From contig JAGGWR010000070.1 of NCBI GenBank assembly GCA_021163445.1, positions 1 through 38,684 of the forward strand: a stretch of 38,684 nt of DNA, read 5' to 3'. This DNA is from Candidatus Tharpella aukensis (GTDB lineage Bacteria; Desulfobacterota; Anaeroferrophillalia; Anaeroferrophillales; Tharpellaceae). Under the pieces are notes generated by a model, which was not told the DNA's origin, did no database searches, and saw only the letters and a program-made list of their open reading frames with translations. A program made the position numbers and the translations under genes. Shown here in pieces: positions 15,798 through 36,057 of this stretch (positions are counted from its first letter, which is position 1; the number at the start of each line of letters is the position of its first letter).

Positions 15798-18029
15798 ATG
15801 TCTCAGGAAACAATTGTCCAATTATTAAACGATCTGGCTGCTGATGTGGTTATGCTCGAGCCTGGAGACCTCTCTAGTCTGGGGCCGTTGCTTAAGACTG
15901 TTGAGGAATTAGAGAAACCTGATGTCAGCGCTGGATTTGAATTCCTGTTGCCTCGAGCTGAACAGTTTCGGGATGCCATTGTTACGATCATATTTGAAGA
16001 GTTTAAAGAACCGGAAAAATCGATCGAACTGCTTTCAACGTCAATTTCCAAGATGCAGGAGGCTCTGCGTAATGGTGCCGACAGTTGTGATAGTGTCGTT
16101 TCAGTGGCGGTTGAAAAGCCTGAAGAGTCAGTGGCGGCTGTTGATGTGGAACCGGAATCCGGTGATGCGGAACATTCATCGGATCTGGATGAAGAACTTT
16201 TTATTGGAGTCGATTTTAGTCAAGATCATGATCTTTATCAGGGTTTTATTGCTGAATCCAACGAACATCTCGATACGATAGAAGAGAATATTCTTAATCT
16301 GGAGCAGGATCCCGAGAACCTTGAGATCTTGAATTCTATTTTTCGCCCTTTTCACACAGTTAAAGGGGTCTCTGGATTTATGAATCTTTCACAGATGAAT
16401 GTTATTGCTCATCATCTGGAAAACCTGCTTGATGATGCCCGTAATCAGAAGTTTTATCTCGATGGTGATGCTACCGACTTGATTCTTGATGGGGTTGATT
16501 TCCTGAAAAAGATGCTTGGGCAACTTAACCTTGCTCTTGACGGGGGTGAACTTGAGAGGATGTCGGTTAAACCTTTCATTAAGCGTGTCGATGCTCTCCA
16601 TCAAGTGCTTTTGGGAGGTGACGCAGCTACTCCTGATGCTGAAAATGAGTCACCAGCACCAAAAATTGGCGAAATTCTGGTTGAAGAAGGGGTTATAAGT
16701 TCTGATGATCTTGAAGGAGCACTGGCTGAACAGCGGGTCGCTGCCGCTGCTGAACCGGAGAAAGCCCCGAAAAAGATCGGCAAAATTTTAGTTGACCAAA
16801 AAAAGACCAATGTTAAAACCGTAGCCCGGGCTATCCGCCAACAAAAACAGAGAAAAGATGTTGCCGGTGCCGGCAGTGGCGTTTCTTCAATCAAAGTGGA
16901 TATGGAGAAACTCGACAATCTGGTTGATATGGTGGGAGAGTTGGTTATTGTTCAAGCGATGATTCATCAGGATCCTGATATTGCCGGTTTAGTAACCCGG
17001 AAGGTGACCGAGAATATGGCTCAGTTGTCCCGGATTACGTCATCATTGCAAAAGGTTGCGATGTCGATGCGGATGGTGCCGATTAAGCAGACTTTTGGTA
17101 AAATGGTGCGTCTTGTACGTGATCTAGCCAAAAAAACCGAAAAAAAGATCGATCTAGTGATGTCTGGTGAGGAGACTGAAATTGATCGTAATATGGTTGA
17201 TTTGATCTATGATCCGATGGTGCATATGATCAGAAATTCGGCTGATCATGGTCTTGAAACCCCAGAGGATCGCCGCGCTTCGGGCAAGGATGAAACGGGA
17301 ACCATTACCCTTAAAGCCTATCATGGCGGAGGTAATGTGATTATTGAGATCGTTGATGACGGACGCGGTCTTAATCTCGAAAAGATCAGAGAGAAGGCGA
17401 TTGAGAAGGGGTTGCTCAGCGAAAATGATCAGCCAACCGATCAAGAGCTTTGCAATATGATTCTCGCGCCGGGGTTTTCGACAGCTGACAAAGTTACCGA
17501 TGTCTCGGGCCGCGGGGTCGGCATGGATGTCGTAAAAAAAGCGATTGAAAGACTGCGTGGAGTGATAGAGATTGATACAAACACGGGTCAAGGTTCGATC
17601 GTGACCATTAAGGTGCCGTTGACATTGGCGATTATTGACGGTATGGTGGTGATTGTTGGTCATGAGCGCTACATCGTTCCGACTCTCAATGTGGTTGAAT
17701 CATTGCGTCCCTTGAAAGAGCAGTACCATACGGTGCAGGGTCAGGGTGAGTTGATTAAAGTACGTGATCGCCTTTTGCCTCTGGTGCGTCTGCATCAGGT
17801 CTTCCATAGCGAAGCCCAGACGACCAATCCCTGGGAGGCTCTGGTGGTGGTAGTTGAGCACGAGGGAGAACAGTTTTGTCTGTTGGTTGACGAGCTGGTT
17901 GGTAAACAGGAGATTGTTATTAAAAGTCTCGGTGAACGACTCAAAGATCTGCCCGGAATTGCCGGAGGGGCAATTATGGGGGATGGCCGTGTTGGTTTGA
18001 TTTTGGATGTTGCCGGACTTTTTACTTAG
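15798..18029 (+). CDS. cheA: Chemotaxis histidine kinase CheA, with an atypical N-terminal extension and no obvious P2 domain
   Basis: HPt motif FRPFHTVKGVSGF (His186). Kinase motifs HMIRNSADHG, DDGRGL and GRGVGMD. C-terminal CheW-like domain. SD-like AAGAGG lies upstream of ATG 15798. Confidence 0.92.
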   Translation: MSQETIVQLLNDLAADVVMLEPGDLSSLGPLLKTVEELEKPDVSAGFEFLLPRAEQFRDAIVTIIFEEFKEPEKSIELLSTSISKMQEALRNGADSCDSVVSVAVEKPEESVAAVDVEPESGDAEHSSDLDEELFIGVDFSQDHDLYQGFIAESNEHLDTIEENILNLEQDPENLEILNSIFRPFHTVKGVSGFMNLSQMNVIAHHLENLLDDARNQKFYLDGDATDLILDGVDFLKKMLGQLNLALDGGELERMSVKPFIKRVDALHQVLLGGDAATPDAENESPAPKIGEILVEEGVISSDDLEGALAEQRVAAAAEPEKAPKKIGKILVDQKKTNVKTVARAIRQQKQRKDVAGAGSGVSSIKVDMEKLDNLVDMVGELVIVQAMIHQDPDIAGLVTRKVTENMAQLSRITSSLQKVAMSMRMVPIKQTFGKMVRLVRDLAKKTEKKIDLVMSGEETEIDRNMVDLIYDPMVHMIRNSADHGLETPEDRRASGKDETGTITLKAYHGGGNVIIEIVDDGRGLNLEKIREKAIEKGLLSENDQPTDQELCNMILAPGFSTADKVTDVSGRGVGMDVVKKAIERLRGVIEIDTNTGQGSIVTIKVPLTLAIIDGMVVIVGHERYIVPTLNVVESLRPLKEQYHTVQGQGELIKVRDRLLPLVRLHQVFHSEAQTTNPWEALVVVVEHEGEQFCLLVDELVGKQEIVIKSLGERLKDLPGIAGGAIMGDGRVGLILDVAGLFT

Positions 18030-18168
18030 CTGTTTCGTGACTTCTAAGTAACTACTTGCAACTAATTGATATTACATGAGTTTCACATTATACCTAAAAT
18101 AAGTATAGTATGCAGTGAAGTCCATTTGTTATTTACATAATATGTGGCCGTATAGCGGTCTGGAGTCG

Positions 18169-18189
18169 CTTTTTACGACGCCATCAAAC
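18169..18189 (+). repeat. Partial copy (3' terminus) of the 128-nt palindromic repeat family
   Basis: CTTTTTACGACGCCATCA (18169-18186) is identical to 21122-21139. The following AAAC and ATATCTTG also resemble the flank of the 34853-34980 copy read on the minus strand. Confidence 0.7.
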
Positions 18190-18233
18190 TTATATATCTT
18201 GGTTCCGGCTCTGTGCCGGGGTAGGTTTTTATT

Positions 18234-18749
18234 ATGGAAGAGCACGCCAGTATTGAGGAAGTTACAACTGCTTCCGGAAATGAGAATAAGTATCTGAGTT
18301 TTCATCTTGCCGATGAGTTATATGGACTAGATATTCTTAAGGTTAGAGAAATTATCGGAGTCCAGGAAGTAACTAAGGTTCCAGGGGCTGAAGAGTATCT
18401 GATCGGGGTGATTAACCTGCGTGGTAAAGTTATTCCGGTTGCTGATTTGCGTATGCGGTTTGTTTTGTCGAGGCGAGAATACGACGCTAGAACCTGTATT
18501 ATTGTTGTTGAAATTGCTAGTGAGGCCGGCCCTGTTGCAATGGGTATTGTTGTTGATGCCGTTGATGCGGTGGTCAATCTGCGCGATGACCAGATAGAAA
18601 AAGCTCCGGTTTTCTCTTCCGAGATCAGTCAGGACTGCATTAAGGGTTTGGGTAAATTTGAGGATAAGGTGGTTATTATCCTTGATATCGATCGAGTCTG
18701 TTCATCCGAGCGGGTGCCGGAAGAGTCGTCGGATGAGTTAAATGAGTAG
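18234..18749 (+). CDS. cheW: Chemotaxis coupling protein CheW
   Basis: A single CheW-like domain is present (YLSFHLADELYGLDILKVREI...VINLRGKVIPVADLR). Confidence 0.9.
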   Translation: MEEHASIEEVTTASGNENKYLSFHLADELYGLDILKVREIIGVQEVTKVPGAEEYLIGVINLRGKVIPVADLRMRFVLSRREYDARTCIIVVEIASEAGPVAMGIVVDAVDAVVNLRDDQIEKAPVFSSEISQDCIKGLGKFEDKVVIILDIDRVCSSERVPEESSDELNE

Positions 18750-19601: not shown

Positions 19602-20083
19602 TGTCTTTGGTTACGATCGGAATTGCTGATCTTAAGGTCAGTAATAATCCCGAGGATACTCTGGTTACCTACTCTCTTGGTTCATGTATCGGTCTTGCCG
19701 TCTATGACCCGGTGGCCAAGGTTGGCGGACTCTTGCATTATATGTTGCCGGATTCATCAATAAATCAGGAAAAGGCGGCAAAGAATCCGGCGATGTTTGC
19801 CAATAAGGGCATACCTTTGCTGTTTAAACAGTGCTACAAGCTTGGAGCTGACAAAAAACGGATGATTATTAAGGTTGCTGGCGGCAGTCAGATTATGGAT
19901 GCTGCTGGTACCTTCAATATCGGTAAACGTAATTACGCAATTTTGCGTAAAATGTTTTGGAAGAATAATGTTATGATCGACGGTGAAGATATTGGCGGCA
20001 ACTGTAACAGAACCATGTATATGCAACTTGACGATGGCAAGATAAACCTGAAAATTTCCAAAAAAGGGATGGTCGAGTTATGA
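19601..20083 (+). CDS. cheD: Chemoreceptor glutamine deamidase CheD
   Basis: LGSCIGLAVYDP motif. The ATG overlaps the cheR stop (TGATG). Confidence 0.88.
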   Translation: MSLVTIGIADLKVSNNPEDTLVTYSLGSCIGLAVYDPVAKVGGLLHYMLPDSSINQEKAAKNPAMFANKGIPLLFKQCYKLGADKKRMIIKVAGGSQIMDAAGTFNIGKRNYAILRKMFWKNNVMIDGEDIGGNCNRTMYMQLDDGKINLKISKKGMVEL

Positions 20084-20940
20084 ACTTGATGGAAGAGATC
20101 ATTGCCGCAGTCGATGAGATGCCGCCCTTTCCTCAGGTTGTGCATCGGGCCATGCAGGTGATAGCGATACCGGAATACGAAGTTTCGAATCTGGTGGAGA
20201 TCTTGAAGGTTGATCAGGCGGTTACTGCAAATATTCTTAAACTTTGCAACTCTGCCTACTTTGGCTTGCCGCGTAAGGTCTCTTCTTTGAAAGAGGCGGT
20301 TGTTTATCTTGGTTCTGACCAGTTGAAACAGCTTCTACTTTCGGGGGCGGCCAGTAAAATTTATGAAAAACCGAGTGAAGGGTATGCCGTTTTTGCAGAT
20401 GAGCTTTGGCGTCATGCTCTGGCTACAGCCGTGATGTCCCAAGTTTTGCGCCGTCATTTGCGACTCAAGATTGATGAAAATATGGTTTTTACCGCAGCCC
20501 TGCTGCACGATGTCGGCAAGGTTGTTTTAAGTTCTTTTGTCTCTGACAGATATATTGCTATAGAGAGCATGGTGGAGAGTGGTGACTACTCTTTTCAGGA
20601 AGCTGAAAAAGATGTCTTAGGTTTTGATCATGCTGAAATTGGTGGTAAAATAGCGGAATCATGGGATTTTCCTCCGTCAATTGTTGCGGCTATCACTTTT
20701 CACCATGAGCCTGCTCGTTCTCCGAAAGAGTTTCGCCTGTTGACCGAGTTGGTGGCTTTAGCCAACAATCTTGCGGTGATGGTTGGTTATGGTACCGGGG
20801 TTGATGGTTTGGCCTGCCGAGGGCATGGTTTGCTTTTGCAGAAGTTAAAGCTTGAGGAGAAGGATGTTGAGGAGTTGATTCTTCTTTTCCAGATGGAAAT
20901 GGAAAAAACGTGTGATATTGCCGGTGTAAGTGAACGTTGA
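20080..20940 (+). CDS. HDOD domain-containing signalling protein
   Basis: The N-terminal motif (MPPFPQVVHRAMQV) and LLHDVGKVVL and GFDHAEIGGKIAESWDFP are typical of HDOD. The ATG overlaps the cheD stop (ATGA). Confidence 0.85.
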   Translation: MNLMEEIIAAVDEMPPFPQVVHRAMQVIAIPEYEVSNLVEILKVDQAVTANILKLCNSAYFGLPRKVSSLKEAVVYLGSDQLKQLLLSGAASKIYEKPSEGYAVFADELWRHALATAVMSQVLRRHLRLKIDENMVFTAALLHDVGKVVLSSFVSDRYIAIESMVESGDYSFQEAEKDVLGFDHAEIGGKIAESWDFPPSIVAAITFHHEPARSPKEFRLLTELVALANNLAVMVGYGTGVDGLACRGHGLLLQKLKLEEKDVEELILLFQMEMEKTCDIAGVSER

Positions 20941-21010
20941 TGGTTGTTACCCTGTTGTGATCCCGGTTTTTTGCCGGTTTAGGAGTTTACGAACTCATGA
21001 AAAGTAATGG

Positions 21011-21138
21011 GATGGCTAAGTAAAAATTTCGATAGACAAGATGATGGGGTTTTCCAGGCGCGAGACCATACAAATAGTATGTCGAGTGTCTGGGAAACCA
21101 CATCATCGCAGGATATCGGAACTTTTTACGACGCCATC
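21011..21138 (+). repeat. 128-nt rod-like palindromic repeat element, copy A
   Basis: It is 119/128 identical to the reverse complement of 34853-34980. Self-complementary segments: GATGGC (21011-16) / GCCATC (21133-38); GTAAAAA (21020-26) / TTTTTAC (21123-29); TTTCGATA (21027-34) / TATCGGAA (21114-21); and a 19-position stem (21040-58 / 21089-107). The apical region is 30 nt. Confidence 0.9.
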
Positions 21139-21150
21139 AGGAGTAAATTT

Positions 21151-21579
21151 ATGGCATATAATATTTTAGTGGTTGATGATTCGCTGTCAATGCGGGCAAT
21201 TATCAAAAAGGTCATTGCCATGTCTGGTTTTGATGTCGGAGAGATAGCTGAAGCTGGAAATGGTTTGGAGGCTCTGGCTAAACTTGAAGATTTCTGGGCC
21301 GATGTGGTTTTGTCTGATATTCATATGCCGGAAATGGACGGAATTGAGTTATTAAAAAAAATTAAATCTGATCCGTTGATGGCCTCAATGCCGGTGGTTA
21401 TGATCACGACCGAATCCCGGGATGAGGTTGTCTCCGGTGCCCTGGCAATGGGTGCGGCCGGTTATATCAAGAAGCCTTTTCGGCCGGAAGATATTAAAGC
21501 TTTGCTGGTCGAGATTTTAGGAGGAGAAGATGATGCTGTTGGAGAAGATCAGTCAGAATCTGACGACTGTGATTTCTGA
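21151..21579 (+). CDS. cheY: CheY-like response regulator (single REC domain) with an acidic C-terminal tail
   Basis: MAYNILVVDDSLSMRAI..., DIHMPEMDG, KKPF. SD AGGAG at 21139-21143 lies 7 nt upstream of ATG 21151. The tail is GGEDDAVGEDQSESDDCDF. Confidence 0.9.
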   Translation: MAYNILVVDDSLSMRAIIKKVIAMSGFDVGEIAEAGNGLEALAKLEDFWADVVLSDIHMPEMDGIELLKKIKSDPLMASMPVVMITTESRDEVVSGALAMGAAGYIKKPFRPEDIKALLVEILGGEDDAVGEDQSESDDCDF

Positions 21580-29675: not shown

Positions 29676-29724
29676 ATCTTTTCTACCTGTCCAGCCGTAA
29701 GCCGGGGAAAATGGTGATGTGGTG

Positions 29725-30270
29725 TTATTTGGCCAGGAGTTCTTTTATTTTGTTTTCCAGTTTGCCGGCGATTTCTGCGTTGAAACCGACGACTTTAAAC
29801 TCAATAGATGGCTGCTTGCTGAGTAAAATTATGGTCGGCAGGGAGCTGACGTTGCCTAAATCTTTGGTGATCGGGTTGTTGGTGCCCATAGCAATCGGGT
29901 AGGGGATGTTGTTGCGTTTGACAAACTCTTCCACGTCAGACTGGTCACCTTGATCAAGACTTACGCCGATCACTTCCAAACCTTGGTCTTTATAGGTTTT
30001 ATAAAGCGTAACCAAGTGCGGGATTGCAGCCCTGCAGGGAGCACACCAGGTCGCCCAGAAATCGAGTAACACGACTTTTCCTTTAAGACTGTCGCGGGTC
30101 AGAGGTTGACCATCAAGCGAAGTCAGGGAAAAATCGGGGACGACTTTTGGCACTTTGGCTTTTTTCGGCCCGCTATCGCCGCAACCTGTAAACAGAGCGG
30201 CGATAAAGAGAGTTAAGCAGAACGTAATTAGACAGTTGTGAAGTGGTTTACGAGTGAAAAATCTGAACAT
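29725..30270 (-). CDS. TlpA/redoxin-family thiol:disulfide oxidoreductase, probable lipoprotein
   Basis: ATG at 30270 with GGAG upstream. Signal sequence ending LFTGC. Thioredoxin-fold motif WATWCAPC. Confidence 0.8.
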   Translation of the reverse strand: MFRFFTRKPLHNCLITFCLTLFIAALFTGCGDSGPKKAKVPKVVPDFSLTSLDGQPLTRDSLKGKVVLLDFWATWCAPCRAAIPHLVTLYKTYKDQGLEVIGVSLDQGDQSDVEEFVKRNNIPYPIAMGTNNPITKDLGNVSSLPTIILLSKQPSIEFKVVGFNAEIAGKLENKIKELLAK

Positions 30271-33871: not shown

Positions 33872-34750
33872 TTAGCCAGCAAAAATATCTAAGGCGGAAA
33901 CTACAAAAATAGTGATGCTGATATAACCGTTAACTGTGAAAAAGGCAGTGTCGATTTTTGTCAGATCAGTCGGACTTAAGAGTTCATGTTCATAATGCAG
34001 CATTGTGGCAACCGCCAAAAGAGCTAAAAGAAAGAGCCAACCCAGCGAGGGGGTGATCAGGTAGATAAAAAAGAGGGCGCCGAGCATGCCTAAGTGGAGT
34101 TTGCGGGCCAGAGTTAAAGTCTGTTCAATGCCGATGGTTGCAGGAATTGAGTGGAGTCCCTCTCCCAGGTCAAATTCGATATCTTGCAGGGAGTAGAGCA
34201 GGTCGAAACCACTGACCCAGCAGCCGACGGCAAAGCCTAATACCAGCGGGGTCAGGGCGAGTGAGCCGGTAACTGCAATCCAGGCTCCGATCGGAGCCAG
34301 TCCGAGGCAGAAACCGAGAACATAGTGGGTGTAGATGGTATAGCGTTTGGCCACCGAGTAGGCAGTTAACATCATAATAATGTAGGGGGCCAGGAGCAGG
34401 CAGAAAGAGTTGAGCATGGCCGCCGCAAAAATAAAGATCAAATAACTTAAGCAGGTCAGTAGAAGCACCTGTTTGGCGTCAATTAATCCGGCAGGCAGGG
34501 CACGGTCTTTGGTGCGGGGGTTGCGGGCGTCGATCTCTGTATCAAGCAGGCGGTTGGCCCCCATGGCTCCGGTGCGGGCTCCGGCCATAGCAATAATGAT
34601 CCATAATACTTTCCAGATCGAGGGCAGTCCGTCGGCGGCCAGCAATGCTGCCATCAGGGCGAAAGGCAAGGCAAAAATAGTATGAGAAAACTTGACCATT
34701 TCAAGAAAAGTGCGTATCCGTGGTTGAGGGGTGGTAAGTTCCATTTCCAT
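33872..34750 (-). CDS. UbiA-family aromatic polyprenyltransferase (4-hydroxybenzoate polyprenyltransferase-like)
   Basis: Polytopic membrane protein with the Asp-rich motif NRLLDTEIDARNPRTKDR. A second acidic motif lies in YSLQDIEFD. Confidence 0.8.
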   Translation of the reverse strand: MEMELTTPQPRIRTFLEMVKFSHTIFALPFALMAALLAADGLPSIWKVLWIIIAMAGARTGAMGANRLLDTEIDARNPRTKDRALPAGLIDAKQVLLLTCLSYLIFIFAAAMLNSFCLLLAPYIIMMLTAYSVAKRYTIYTHYVLGFCLGLAPIGAWIAVTGSLALTPLVLGFAVGCWVSGFDLLYSLQDIEFDLGEGLHSIPATIGIEQTLTLARKLHLGMLGALFFIYLITPSLGWLFLLALLAVATMLHYEHELLSPTDLTKIDTAFFTVNGYISITIFVVSALDIFAG

Positions 34751-34852
34751 GTTAAATACCTCTTTTAATGTAAGTTGGGGAAAATGGTTCAGGTTTGTTT
34801 TTTTCCGGGCACCCCCATTACTCTATTTAGTTTGATGATGCAAGATATGTTT

Positions 34853-34980
34853 GATGGCGTTGTAAAAAGTTCCGATATCCTGCGTTGTTGTGTTTTTCCA
34901 GACACTCGACATACTATTTGTATGGTCTCGCGCCTGGAAAACCACAACTACTTGTCTATCGAAATTTTTACTTAGCCATC
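34853..34980 (-). repeat. 128-nt rod-like palindromic repeat element, copy B (the minus strand has the orientation of copy A)
   Basis: Its reverse complement aligns base-for-base, without gaps, with 21011-21138, with 9 mismatches. It lies in the 299-nt divergent spacer between the ubiA-like gene and pdxA. Confidence 0.9.
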
Positions 34981-35049
34981 CCGTATTTTTTACGTCTCGA
35001 AGGAAGTGTACTTGGGGTGTGAGTTTATTATGCTTATGGGAGAATAAAT

Positions 35050-36057
35050 ATGGTTAGATTGGCGGTTTCGATGGGGGATCCGGCGGGTGTCGGTCCAGAA
35101 GTGACAGTGCGCTCTCTTGTGCAGATGGATGAGGGCTTGCGTAGAGAGGTCGTGGTGGTCGGTGAGGCGGCTTGGTTGCGGCGGGTTGCAAAAGCGATTG
35201 GCGGGGTGGCAAGATCACTGGTTTTTGTCGAAAGAGGTGCGGCGGTCGGGGTTGATGATTGGCCGTCAGAGATTGCTGCGAGGGCGATCCGGGTTTGCAA
35301 TCCTCTTGCCGAAGCTCTGCCGCAACTGGTTTTGGGGCGTGATTATGCGGTTTTCGGTGATGCCTCATTTAATTATGTCAAGTGTGGAGTCGAGTTGGTG
35401 CAAAAAGGGATTTGTCAGGCTCTGGTGACCGCACCGATCTCTAAGCATGCCTGGCATCTGGCAGGCCATCAATATCCCGGCCATACTGAATTTTTGCGCG
35501 AATTGAGCGGGAGTTCGAAGGTCGGTATGGTATTTTGGGGTGAACGTTTGAAGGTTCTGTTGGCGACGACTCACCTATCTCTGGCCCGGGTGCCGGAGGT
35601 TTTGACAATTGATCTTGTCCTGGAACAGATTTTAATGTTGCATGACTTTATGCAGAAGATTAATCTGTCTGGAACTATCGGTTTAGCCGCCCTGAATCCT
35701 CATGCCGGCGAAGGGGGAGCCTTTGGCGATGAAGAGGAGCGCATTTTGCGGCCTGCTCTGACCCGTTTACATAAGCTTGGTGTCGCGGTTGAGGGGCCTG
35801 TACCTGCTGATGTGCTTTTTCATCAGGCTCTTAACGGTCGGTATGCGGCCCTGGTCGCACTCTATCATGATCAAGGCCTGGTGCCTTTTAAAATGCTCTA
35901 TTTTGATGATGGTGTCAATCTTTCTATAGGCCTCCCTTTTATCAGAACTTCCGCTGATCATGGTACGGCGTTTGATATTTCTGATAAATTTGTTGCCAGC
36001 AGCCGAAGTATGGATGCAGCACTCGCACTTGCCGTTAGGTTGGCAAGTGTTTATTGA
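35050..36057 (+). CDS. pdxA: 4-hydroxythreonine-4-phosphate dehydrogenase
   Basis: MVRLAVSMGDPAGVGPEV at the N-terminus, plus LNPHAGEGG and TSADHGTAFD motifs. Confidence 0.9.
   Translation: MVRLAVSMGDPAGVGPEVTVRSLVQMDEGLRREVVVVGEAAWLRRVAKAIGGVARSLVFVERGAAVGVDDWPSEIAARAIRVCNPLAEALPQLVLGRDYAVFGDASFNYVKCGVELVQKGICQALVTAPISKHAWHLAGHQYPGHTEFLRELSGSSKVGMVFWGERLKVLLATTHLSLARVPEVLTIDLVLEQILMLHDFMQKINLSGTIGLAALNPHAGEGGAFGDEEERILRPALTRLHKLGVAVEGPVPADVLFHQALNGRYAALVALYHDQGLVPFKMLYFDDGVNLSIGLPFIRTSADHGTAFDISDKFVASSRSMDAALALAVRLASVY

Follow-up and report, generated by a model that had tools for sequence, protein, structure and literature searches.

A previously undescribed MITE family and its probable insertion at the cheY Shine-Dalgarno sequence of Candidatus Tharpella aukensis

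A probable transposable element between the HDOD gene and cheY

Contig JAGGWR010000070.1 of Candidatus Tharpella aukensis (assembly GCA_021163445.1; 38,684 nt, hereafter the window) carries a chemotaxis (che) operon in which a 128-nt segment that can fold almost end to end into a rod lies between an HDOD-domain gene and cheY. This segment, here called copy A (21011-21138, + strand), belongs to a previously undescribed MITE (miniature inverted-repeat transposable element) family. We consider it very probable that copy A is a nonautonomous DNA transposon of ~151 nt that inserted at the cheY Shine-Dalgarno (SD) sequence and persists there as a tolerated passenger, with a hairpin that is maintained by the family. 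The hairpin at the cheY ribosome-binding site would thus be the scar of a transposon that regenerated its own target, and not a purpose-built regulator. Terminal inverted repeats, a target duplication of fixed length, many copies, and orthologous sites found both filled and empty together identify the family as a MITE.

The 128-nt segment (GATGGCTAAG...CGACGCCATC) has a predicted RNA minimum free energy of -66.4 kcal/mol on the + strand, where dinucleotide shuffles average -25.9 +/- 3.1 kcal/mol (z -13.1; 0 of 200 shuffles were as stable); the fold predicted for the - strand reaches only -45.9 kcal/mol. The helices described in the initial annotation were recovered as listed, as was the 210-nt length of the gap between the HDOD gene and cheY (20941-21150). 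The 128-nt rod is, however, not the whole inserted unit. Read from left to right on the + strand, the spacer contains the hexamer AGGAGT (20981-20986), the original cheY SD sequence, now orphaned upstream; a degenerate outer terminal inverted repeat of 24 nt, TTACGAACTCATGAAAAGTAATGG (20987-21010); the rod itself (21011-21138), consisting of an inner arm resembling the terminal repeats, a body that is palindromic, and CTTTTTACGACGCCATC as the right terminal inverted repeat; and a second AGGAGT (21139-21144), 6 nt before the cheY ATG at 21151, which is the functional cheY SD sequence. Alignment breaks against the empty orthologous site place the inserted unit at ~151 nt, made up of the 24-nt outer repeat plus the rod.

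That empty site is provided by L087, the che locus of MAG240, a metagenome-assembled genome (MAG) that shares 88% DNA identity with the window over the che operon. The HDOD-cheY spacer of L087 is 52 nt long and reads ...GCCGGTTTAGGAGTTAATTTATG, with a single AGGAGT(T) and no outer repeat; at the same place the window reads ...GCCGGTTTAGGAGT, then 151 nt, then AGGAGTAAATTTATG. The BLAST alignment of the two sequences is broken exactly at 20987/21139, with a 7-nt overlap on the L087 side. More distant orthologues (L090-L093) also have element-free spacers, of 45-49 nt. The GCCATC end of the rod is followed immediately by AGGAGTAAATTTATG, and the adjacency of rod and SD sequence pointed out in the initial annotation therefore stands, but not as a feature of design: the SD sequence abuts the last base of the element because insertion into the cheY SD sequence duplicated it.

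Two further natural pairs of filled and empty sites were found, L025 (filled) with L022 (empty) and L072 (filled) with L064 (empty). Each of the three empty sites holds a single copy of the hexamer that is duplicated at its filled counterpart, and neither the outer repeat nor the rod is present in L022 or L064. The idea that the outer repeat was a pre-existing solo repeat in the target beside which the rod inserted was accordingly rejected, as all three empty sites lack both.

Flanks were aligned for the 74 copies in which they were usable. An outer repeat of 23 nt (consensus GATGCATTCGTAAAAAGTCACGG, conserved core GATGNNNTCGTAAAAAGTNNNGG) precedes the rod in most of them; the version in copy A has decayed and matches the consensus at 17 of 23 positions. 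The first 17 nt of the outer repeat are the inverted repeat of the right end (CTTTTTACGACGCCATC, reverse complement GATGGCGTCGTAAAAAG), giving an element bounded by GATGNNNTCGTAAAAAG on the left and CTTTTTACGACGCCATC on the right, with termini GATG...CATC. Perfect 6-bp target duplications flank 29 copies and have the consensus A-A-N-N-T-T, the first base being A in 29/29. An alternative parsing, with TG...CA ends and a 4-bp duplication, was discarded, since 6 bp agrees better with copy A (AGGAGT) and with L030 (AAAGAA|GAT).

Six metagenome contigs, from JGI 3300017593 and from the SPET22-1 assemblies in ENA, encode the exact HDOD protein of the window; many relatives of this protein are 76-90% identical. 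Every one of the six contigs that reaches the spacer contains the element, two of them terminating within it, and one carries a single substitution in the element that mends a mismatch of the fold.

The unit has no coding capacity of its own, as the sole open reading frame (ORF) across copy A (21007-21579) extends cheY upstream. The sense strand of the rod happens to be open in the cheY frame, yielding a spurious extension of 48 codons and an ORF of 190 aa. CheY orthologues are 141-143 aa long and start at the ATG equivalent to 21151; the 190-aa ORF is, judging by these sequences, an artefact of the insertion and should be annotated as such.

Family size and hosts

A collection of species-representative genomes was scanned with the terminal 20-mer AAGTAAAAATTTCGATAGAC, revealing at least 77 family loci with unrelated flanks in 7 MAGs. 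Among the matches listed, Deltaproteobacteria bacterium CSMAG_1647 has at least 32 loci, Pseudomonadota bacterium MAG240 at least 17, Pseudomonadota bacterium MAG091 at least 9, CSMAG_305 and CSMAG_2054 at least 8 each, a Desulfuromonadaceae MAG at least 2, and Candidatus Tharpella sp. AUK055 at least 1. At least 69 full-length copies (126-129 nt) are distinct by sequence and flanks, and 66 distinct sequences were used for the alignment below; longer variants (151-156, 179, and 255 nt) and truncated copies also occur. A metagenome scan with the core 20-mer added one true copy at an unrelated locus (L007) and two chance matches, and no match was found in viral contigs or plasmids.

A number of contigs, many of them k141 contigs, start 11-12 nt before a copy or end within one, including L004, L006, and many from CSMAG_1647 (L021, L024, L039, L051, L084, and L086). 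Such contig ends are expected of assembly breaks at a multi-copy repeat, which explains the breaks in the MAGs at these points, and since the repeat fragments assemblies, the copy numbers per MAG are lower bounds. Candidatus Tharpella was named from Auka vent sediments, also the source of the SPET22-1 assemblies (PMC9213671); repeats are not mentioned in that paper. The family is thus a MITE of high copy number, not previously described, from uncultured bacteria of marine sediments. Their little-known lineage appears in the records as Deltaproteobacteria, Pseudomonadota, or Candidatus Tharpella, and insertions of the family differ between closely related MAGs.

Some insertions are common to different MAG species at orthologous sites (L018/L052/L062 and L053/L072), but with rods that differ: one has the 27-nt insert described below, and another has a different 3' half and an end variant. 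This suggests either that the insertions are old and copies later exchanged sequence, or that one site was hit more than once.

The abundance of the family disposes of the notion that the repeat arose by local segmental duplication, or is a palindrome due to chance, and is immobile and confined to this contig. Only two full copies are present in the 38.7-kb window, as such a notion would have it, but at least 77 further loci with unrelated flanks in 7 MAGs, the z score of -13 relative to shuffles, and the filled and empty orthologous sites make it extremely improbable.

Maintenance of the hairpin

The 66 distinct copies were aligned with MAFFT (alignment A1), giving a consensus structure of 50 pairs in which standard pairs occupy 97.8% of cells. 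Double-sided changes were found at 14 pairs, in 70 cells, together with 51 further pair types; when columns were shuffled, 0 of 500 trials reached any observed value, and sliding the 3' partner by 1-3 columns reduced pairing to 37-47%. The double changes are concentrated where columns 32-44 pair with columns 84-96, in the middle stem. Pair 42/86, for example, changed from U-A to C-G in 12 copies, and pair 44/84 from C-G to U-A in 10 copies. Note that the first 30 alignment columns are partly fixed by the search pattern, and their invariance is uninformative. Overall, the rod-like fold is a property of the family, kept by compensatory changes.

The fold is also clearly favoured on one strand, although all these counts are of non-independent events. 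Three G:U pairs are fixed in the family, and the remaining G:U cells outnumber A.C cells 46 to 18 when the sense strand is read; the sense-strand RNA is predicted to fold better than its complement in 66/66 copies (mean -65.0 versus -50.1 kcal/mol).

Insertion sites, orientation, and stop codons

With long nonoverlapping ORFs taken as a proxy for genes in the loci, no copy lies within a gene. Copies between co-directional genes are not oriented at random: 34 are antisense to transcription and only 4 are sense (binomial p 6e-7), copy A being one of the minority. The initial annotation had noted that the same strand of the element is transcribed toward the next gene; this is true of the three sites in the window, but in the family as a whole it is reversed.

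A long ORF that runs toward the right end of the element stops at T|GA in 34-35 of the 74 copies, the T being the last base of the duplication and the GA the first bases of the element as read in antisense. Five of the other ORFs running toward that end stop at a TAA in the next frame, and two or three read through. The T|GA share, 34/41, far exceeds the expected one third (p 9e-11). When empty sites were rebuilt from copies with perfect duplications, an original TGA, TAA, or TAG stood at the identical position in 14 of the 15 sites with a long ORF. The natural pair tells the same story, L022 reading ...GAA GCG GAT AGT TAG where L025 reads ...GAA GCC GAC AGT T|GA TGG C.... Pfam domains reach the C-terminal region in 7 of 8 stop-junction ORFs tested; the domains in these ORFs include ketol-acid reductoisomerase, class IV aminotransferase, LivH-type permease, LptA, POR gamma, and an ACT pair.

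As a logo, the target reads T-Y | A-A-N-N-T-T | W-R. Its left-hand triplet T-Y-A complements a stop codon and is found in 25/29 copies, and in 9 of the 17 sites without a gene end, among which is copy A (TTA). In the same loci, intergenic DNA has roughly nine times as many sites with the motif (272) as gene ends have (31, including junctions made by the element itself), yet half of the copies are at gene ends. Both ends of the element start GATG, and either would rebuild a stop codon, but genes stop at the right junction in about 35 cases and at the left in about 2; it follows that protein-level selection cannot explain the orientation. Such selection acting on a palindromic target was for the same reason ruled out as a sufficient cause of the stop-codon placement. 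The orientation bias may come either from a transposition complex that recognises its target asymmetrically or from selection acting in mRNAs against the sense hairpin, which is the stronger one.

We tentatively propose, at somewhat less than even chances, that the MITE homes to stop codons: an asymmetric target (T-Y-A followed by A-N-N-T-T) would be entered in one orientation, and the terminal GA of the element would rebuild the stop, leaving the upstream protein unchanged. Our search of the literature on bacterial MITEs and REPs (repetitive extragenic palindromic sequences) yielded no description of such homing. If correct, stop-codon homing would be a built-in and nearly cost-free means of reaching many copies in a compact genome, and the maintained hairpin would serve the element and not the host. 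A mechanistic preference of this kind would amount to a transposon minimising its own cost, and could possibly be exploited as a tool for tagging gene 3' ends.

Mode of insertion and probable consequences for cheY

In the scheme that we favour, copy A would have been moved in trans by a DDE-type transposase; it consists of an outer terminal inverted repeat of 23-24 nt, then 5 nt of spacer, then a palindromic body of 128 nt that has the second repeat at its 3' end. It entered the HDOD-cheY spacer by a 6-bp staggered cut at AGGAGT, and the cheY SD sequence was thereby duplicated. Both the SD sequence and its spacing to the ATG have been restored by the duplication (window AGGAGTAAATTTATG, empty orthologue AGGAGTTAATTTATG). 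Transcription from the HDOD gene would pass through the element, and cheY would be translated from its own SD sequence; the polycistronic che mRNA would gain from the insertion a hairpin of great stability that presumably does not occlude that sequence. Predictions agree with this picture: when a 250-nt context (20941-21190) was folded, the rod folded independently and the SD sequence was unpaired in the centroid structure, and no terminator was predicted between the HDOD gene and cheY. Likewise, no promoter-like or terminator-like site was predicted in the rod of either copy, so the earlier suggestion that the element might donate a promoter or terminator gains nothing from 21011-21138. In the antisense orientation, the rod was considered and rejected as a canonical intrinsic terminator, the nearest T-run being 7 nt past the stem base. 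By analogy with Correia and ERIC elements, the insertion might have some effect on mRNA processing or stability or on ribosome access, and its double-stranded segment might draw RNase III or shield RNA ends. The hairpin may have been kept because the sense-strand fold matters to the element, either as RNA or as single-stranded DNA while the element transposes or is replicated; repair templated by the hairpin is an alternative.

Several observations weigh against this reading. The copies are related by descent, and the shuffle statistics thus overstate their independence. Six copies (L007, L016, L041, L046, L060, and L082) have no recognisable outer repeat or duplication, and three sequences resembling the terminal repeat per element is not the simplest layout for a MITE. 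A parent transposase was sought by collecting terminal-repeat pairs 0.3-7 kb apart and examining the ORFs between candidate pairs (L044, L038, and L020), but these encode only sensor kinases, CheB/CheR-like proteins, and other host genes; across the ~600 kb of loci, neither a transposase enclosed by a repeat pair nor an autonomous insertion sequence whose ends match was found, nor did an all-against-all BLASTP of the 670 ORFs reveal a multi-copy protein. A transposase-bearing partner would be expected to have the end pair GATGNNNTCGTAAAAAG ... CTTTTTACGANNNCATC; a possible lead to one is the ISDol1 group of ISNCY, which originates from a deltaproteobacterium and produces duplications of 6-7 bp. 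It is the terminal repeats and target duplication that point to mobilisation by a DDE-type enzyme. Finally, the strong covariation and the fixed G:U pairs could indicate a function at the RNA level.

The main alternative is that the rod is, or has become, a cis-acting RNA device, either an entry site for RNase III or RNase E, or a stabiliser of the upstream 3' end or of the 5' end of cheY-cheX-cheB, which would set the stoichiometry of the che proteins. The rod is very stable on the strand transcribed at cheY, its pairing has been kept by compensatory changes, and sporadic G:U cells exceed A.C cells on the sense strand, all of which an RNA device would lead one to expect; there is also precedent in the Correia and ERIC elements, for which co-transcription and effects on mRNA stability are documented (PMC2229807, PMC3184786). 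However, orthologous che operons have spacers of 45-52 nt and no element, and because close relatives do without it, there is no sign of selection for a role at cheY. Furthermore, 34 of the 38 co-directional copies are transcribed in the weaker antisense orientation, and with such a majority the sense-strand bias is not explained by selection on host mRNAs. Insertion sites, moreover, track the target motif and not any class of gene. We therefore regard an RNA device as unlikely, though it is the alternative that survives best.

A REP/REPIN or IS200/IS605-derived element, in which a tyrosine HUH transposase (RAYT or TnpA) moves a single-stranded DNA hairpin, would account for a strand-specific fold, and a strand-asymmetric hairpin is indeed a feature of 66/66 copies. 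The left junction is often TT|GATG, reminiscent of TTGAT or TTAC, which are target words of IS200/IS605 elements. But HUH transposition makes no target duplication, and 29 perfect 6-bp duplications and three empty sites with a single hexamer are difficult to reconcile with it. The element, at 151 nt with long terminal inverted repeats, also differs from the 20-40-nt GC-rich palindrome with a GTAG/CGTC head described in the accessible part of PMC3733652, and no RAYT-like or TnpA-like ORF was seen beside any copy, although no systematic search for one was made. We judge this explanation very improbable. Of the two classes to which the initial annotation had likened the repeat, MITE/Correia-type and REP-like, only the first is retained: the terminal repeats, duplications, at least 77 loci, and empty sites are those of a MITE, whereas the duplications and the lack of a short GC-rich palindrome speak against a REP.

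Other copies, remnants, and genes in the window

The gene order of the che region, in agreement with the initial annotation, is cheA (15798-18029), cheW (18234-18749), cheR and cheD, the HDOD gene (20080-20940), and cheY (ATG at 21151), followed by cheX and cheB. Farther along lie a UbiA-family gene (33872-34750, - strand) and pdxA (35050-36057, + strand). The che operon looks degraded in distant relatives: in L088 and L089 nothing is left of it beyond a CheA fragment, cheD, and the HDOD gene, and in L092 and L093 cheA, cheW, and cheY are split into several short ORFs. These degraded loci may be pseudogenes or assembly errors.

The near-identical second copy reported at 34853-34980 was confirmed. 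Copy B lies on the - strand, inverted with respect to copy A, and is identical to it at 119/128 positions after reverse-complementing; a repeat finder reported the pair as an inverted repeat of 140 nt (91%), with arms at 21000-21139 and 34852-34991. Its predicted folds are again asymmetric (-59.3 kcal/mol on the - strand versus -44.2 on the +), and the middle stems of the two copies differ by partly compensatory changes, GAUGAUG/CAUCAUC in copy A versus GUAGUUG/CAACAAC in copy B. By comparison with the family flanks, the spacer and outer left terminal repeat of copy B probably occupy 34981-35029 (- strand): on the + strand, the rod is followed by the spacer CCGTA and then by the outer repeat TTTTTTAC...GAGTTTATT, split by a 27-nt insert. 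The duplication is imperfect (ATGTTT at 34847-34852, ATGCTT at 35030-35035). Copy B would thus end 20 nt before the start of pdxA, in the divergent ubiA/pdxA region.

The 27-nt insert (GCCCCGCAGGAAGTGCCCTTGGGGTGC) is found within MITE copies at no fewer than four positions and in both orientations, usually after AC and before RA; the one in the window is a degenerate copy at 34994-35020. It occurs in L011, L013, L015, L018, L021, L029, L030, L032, and L035, and further in L036, L042, L047, L050, L058, L061, L073, and L085. All 21 copies of the insert in ~600 kb lie within the MITE, which gives it the look of a very small mobile hairpin peculiar to this family.

The cheA-cheW gap contains the remnant of a third copy. 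The initial annotation mentioned a fragment in this gap, upstream of cheW; that fragment (18169-18185, + strand) matches the terminal 17 nt of the family repeat, CTTTTTACGACGCCATC, at 17/17 positions, and it is part of a larger rearranged insertion. The cheA-cheW gap is 204 nt in the window versus 19 nt in L087, and CheA is 743 aa long, ending ...LDVAGLFT*, versus 753 aa ending ...LDVAGLSRN* in L087. Comparison of the two cheA ends (window 18014-18233, L087 8100-8144) gives the following order in the window: native cheA up to GCCGGACT; a rod end, TTTTACTTAGC, that contains the TAG; the spacer and an outer-repeat stub, TGTTTCGTGACTT; and CTTTTTACGACGCCATC followed by AAACTT (18186-18191), which fits the consensus of the target duplication. 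The rod end, spacer, and outer-repeat bases (18020-18043, + strand) are antisense-oriented on the cheA stop codon, and the last codons and TAG stop of cheA (18014-18030) are supplied by the rod end. The arrangement is best read as an antisense insertion at a stop codon, typical of the family, most of whose rod was subsequently lost; for annotation, the altered C-terminus of CheA would be the product of a second insertion of the same MITE family.

The outer-repeat stub is interrupted after ACTT by a nested passenger module of ~125 nt (18044-18168, + strand). Complete copies in L026 and L070 carry this module at the identical position, forming 255-nt composites, and it is also present beside a stop codon in L043 and in part in L011. 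It contains a predicted promoter-like site, TTCACA-16-TATAGT (18082-18109), directed outward, here toward cheW, and the best match in the region; L026 and L070 have the TATAAT variant.

A terminator-like hairpin (GTTCCGGCTCTGTGCCGGGGT plus a T-run, 18202-18222) lies 11 nt before the cheW start and is absent from the short spacer of L087. Elsewhere in the window, a 34-nt direct repeat (GTAAGCCGGGGAAAATGGTG..., 74% identity) is present at 29697-29730 and 34770-34803, beside the starts of two minus-strand genes, the UbiA-family gene being one of them. The repeat could be a leader motif common to both or simply a coincidence.

Comparison with known elements

In accord with the initial annotation, which recognised no described family, Rfam gave 0 matches at gathering thresholds across the whole window, and around the element only chance matches with E>4 (E up to 10); no RNA family in Rfam is thus represented here. 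No description of the family was found in the literature searched on bacterial MITEs and REPs and on Tharpella.

The closest parallels are with the Correia (NEMIS) elements of Neisseria (~104-157 bp), which are alike in size, terminal inverted repeats, target duplication, high copy number, and a mostly intergenic location, and which form long end-to-end hairpins and are co-transcribed with neighbouring genes (PMC2229807). However, Correia elements duplicate TA, whereas the new family duplicates 6 bp (A-A-N-N-T-T), has a third, internal arm resembling the terminal repeats, and inserts at stop codons with a fixed orientation; neither an IHF site nor a promoter was predicted in it, its host lineage is different, and there is no evident sequence relationship. 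The ERIC (IRU) elements of enterobacteria (~127 bp) resemble it in the length of the rod, the imperfect palindrome, and a transcribed intergenic location near gene 3' ends, and their effects on mRNA depend on the RNA fold (PMC3184786). Elements of the ERIC type are flanked by TA (PMC3184786), but the new family has a 6-bp duplication, filled and empty sites between close relatives that reveal insertions since their divergence, and a strong orientation relative to the upstream gene. The TA that marks Correia and ERIC elements (PMC2229807, PMC3184786) has no counterpart here, where the ends are GATG...CATC.

Two other MITE-like elements are treated in PMC3184786, and are compared here from the accessible part of that source. 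The Chunjie MITE of Geobacter uraniireducens also has a deltaproteobacterial-type host, is AT-rich, and has very stable predicted RNA folds; like copy A, it has been described within an operon that it does not disrupt. It is, however, 178-235 bp long, with 21-bp terminal repeats and 9-bp direct repeats, versus ~151 nt and 6-bp duplications in the new family. The bcr1 element of the Bacillus cereus group is a transcribed nonautonomous element of ~155 bp in which compensatory changes keep a double-stranded structure, and it is thus similar in size, in having short direct repeats, and in its compensatory base changes; it differs in its 5-bp direct repeats and Firmicute host, and that part of PMC3184786 reports no stop-codon placement for it.

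The REP, BIME, and REPIN sequences are likewise extragenic palindromes, commonly lie just after stop codons, and can stabilise upstream mRNA. According to the accessible part of PMC3733652, REPs are GC-rich stem-loops of 20-40 nt tied to RAYT tyrosine transposases, with no target duplication; a 128-nt rod that is AT-rich at its ends, with termini GATGGC...GCCATC and 6-bp duplications, was therefore not assigned to them. Elements of the IS200/IS605-derived PATE kind, which insert at a fixed tetra- or pentanucleotide without duplication and have subterminal hairpins, were set aside because natural empty sites confirm the duplications. An integron attC site was also rejected, as the GATGGC/GCCATC termini lack RYYYAAC/GTTRRRY core sites and target duplications are present.

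Set beside these systems, the features that stand out are the oriented insertion at stop codons, the covariation that preserves structure, and the 27-nt mini-insert found, in this sample, only within the MITE. Overall, the family is ordinary in kind, and its oriented homing to stop codons is the part that might be new in kind.

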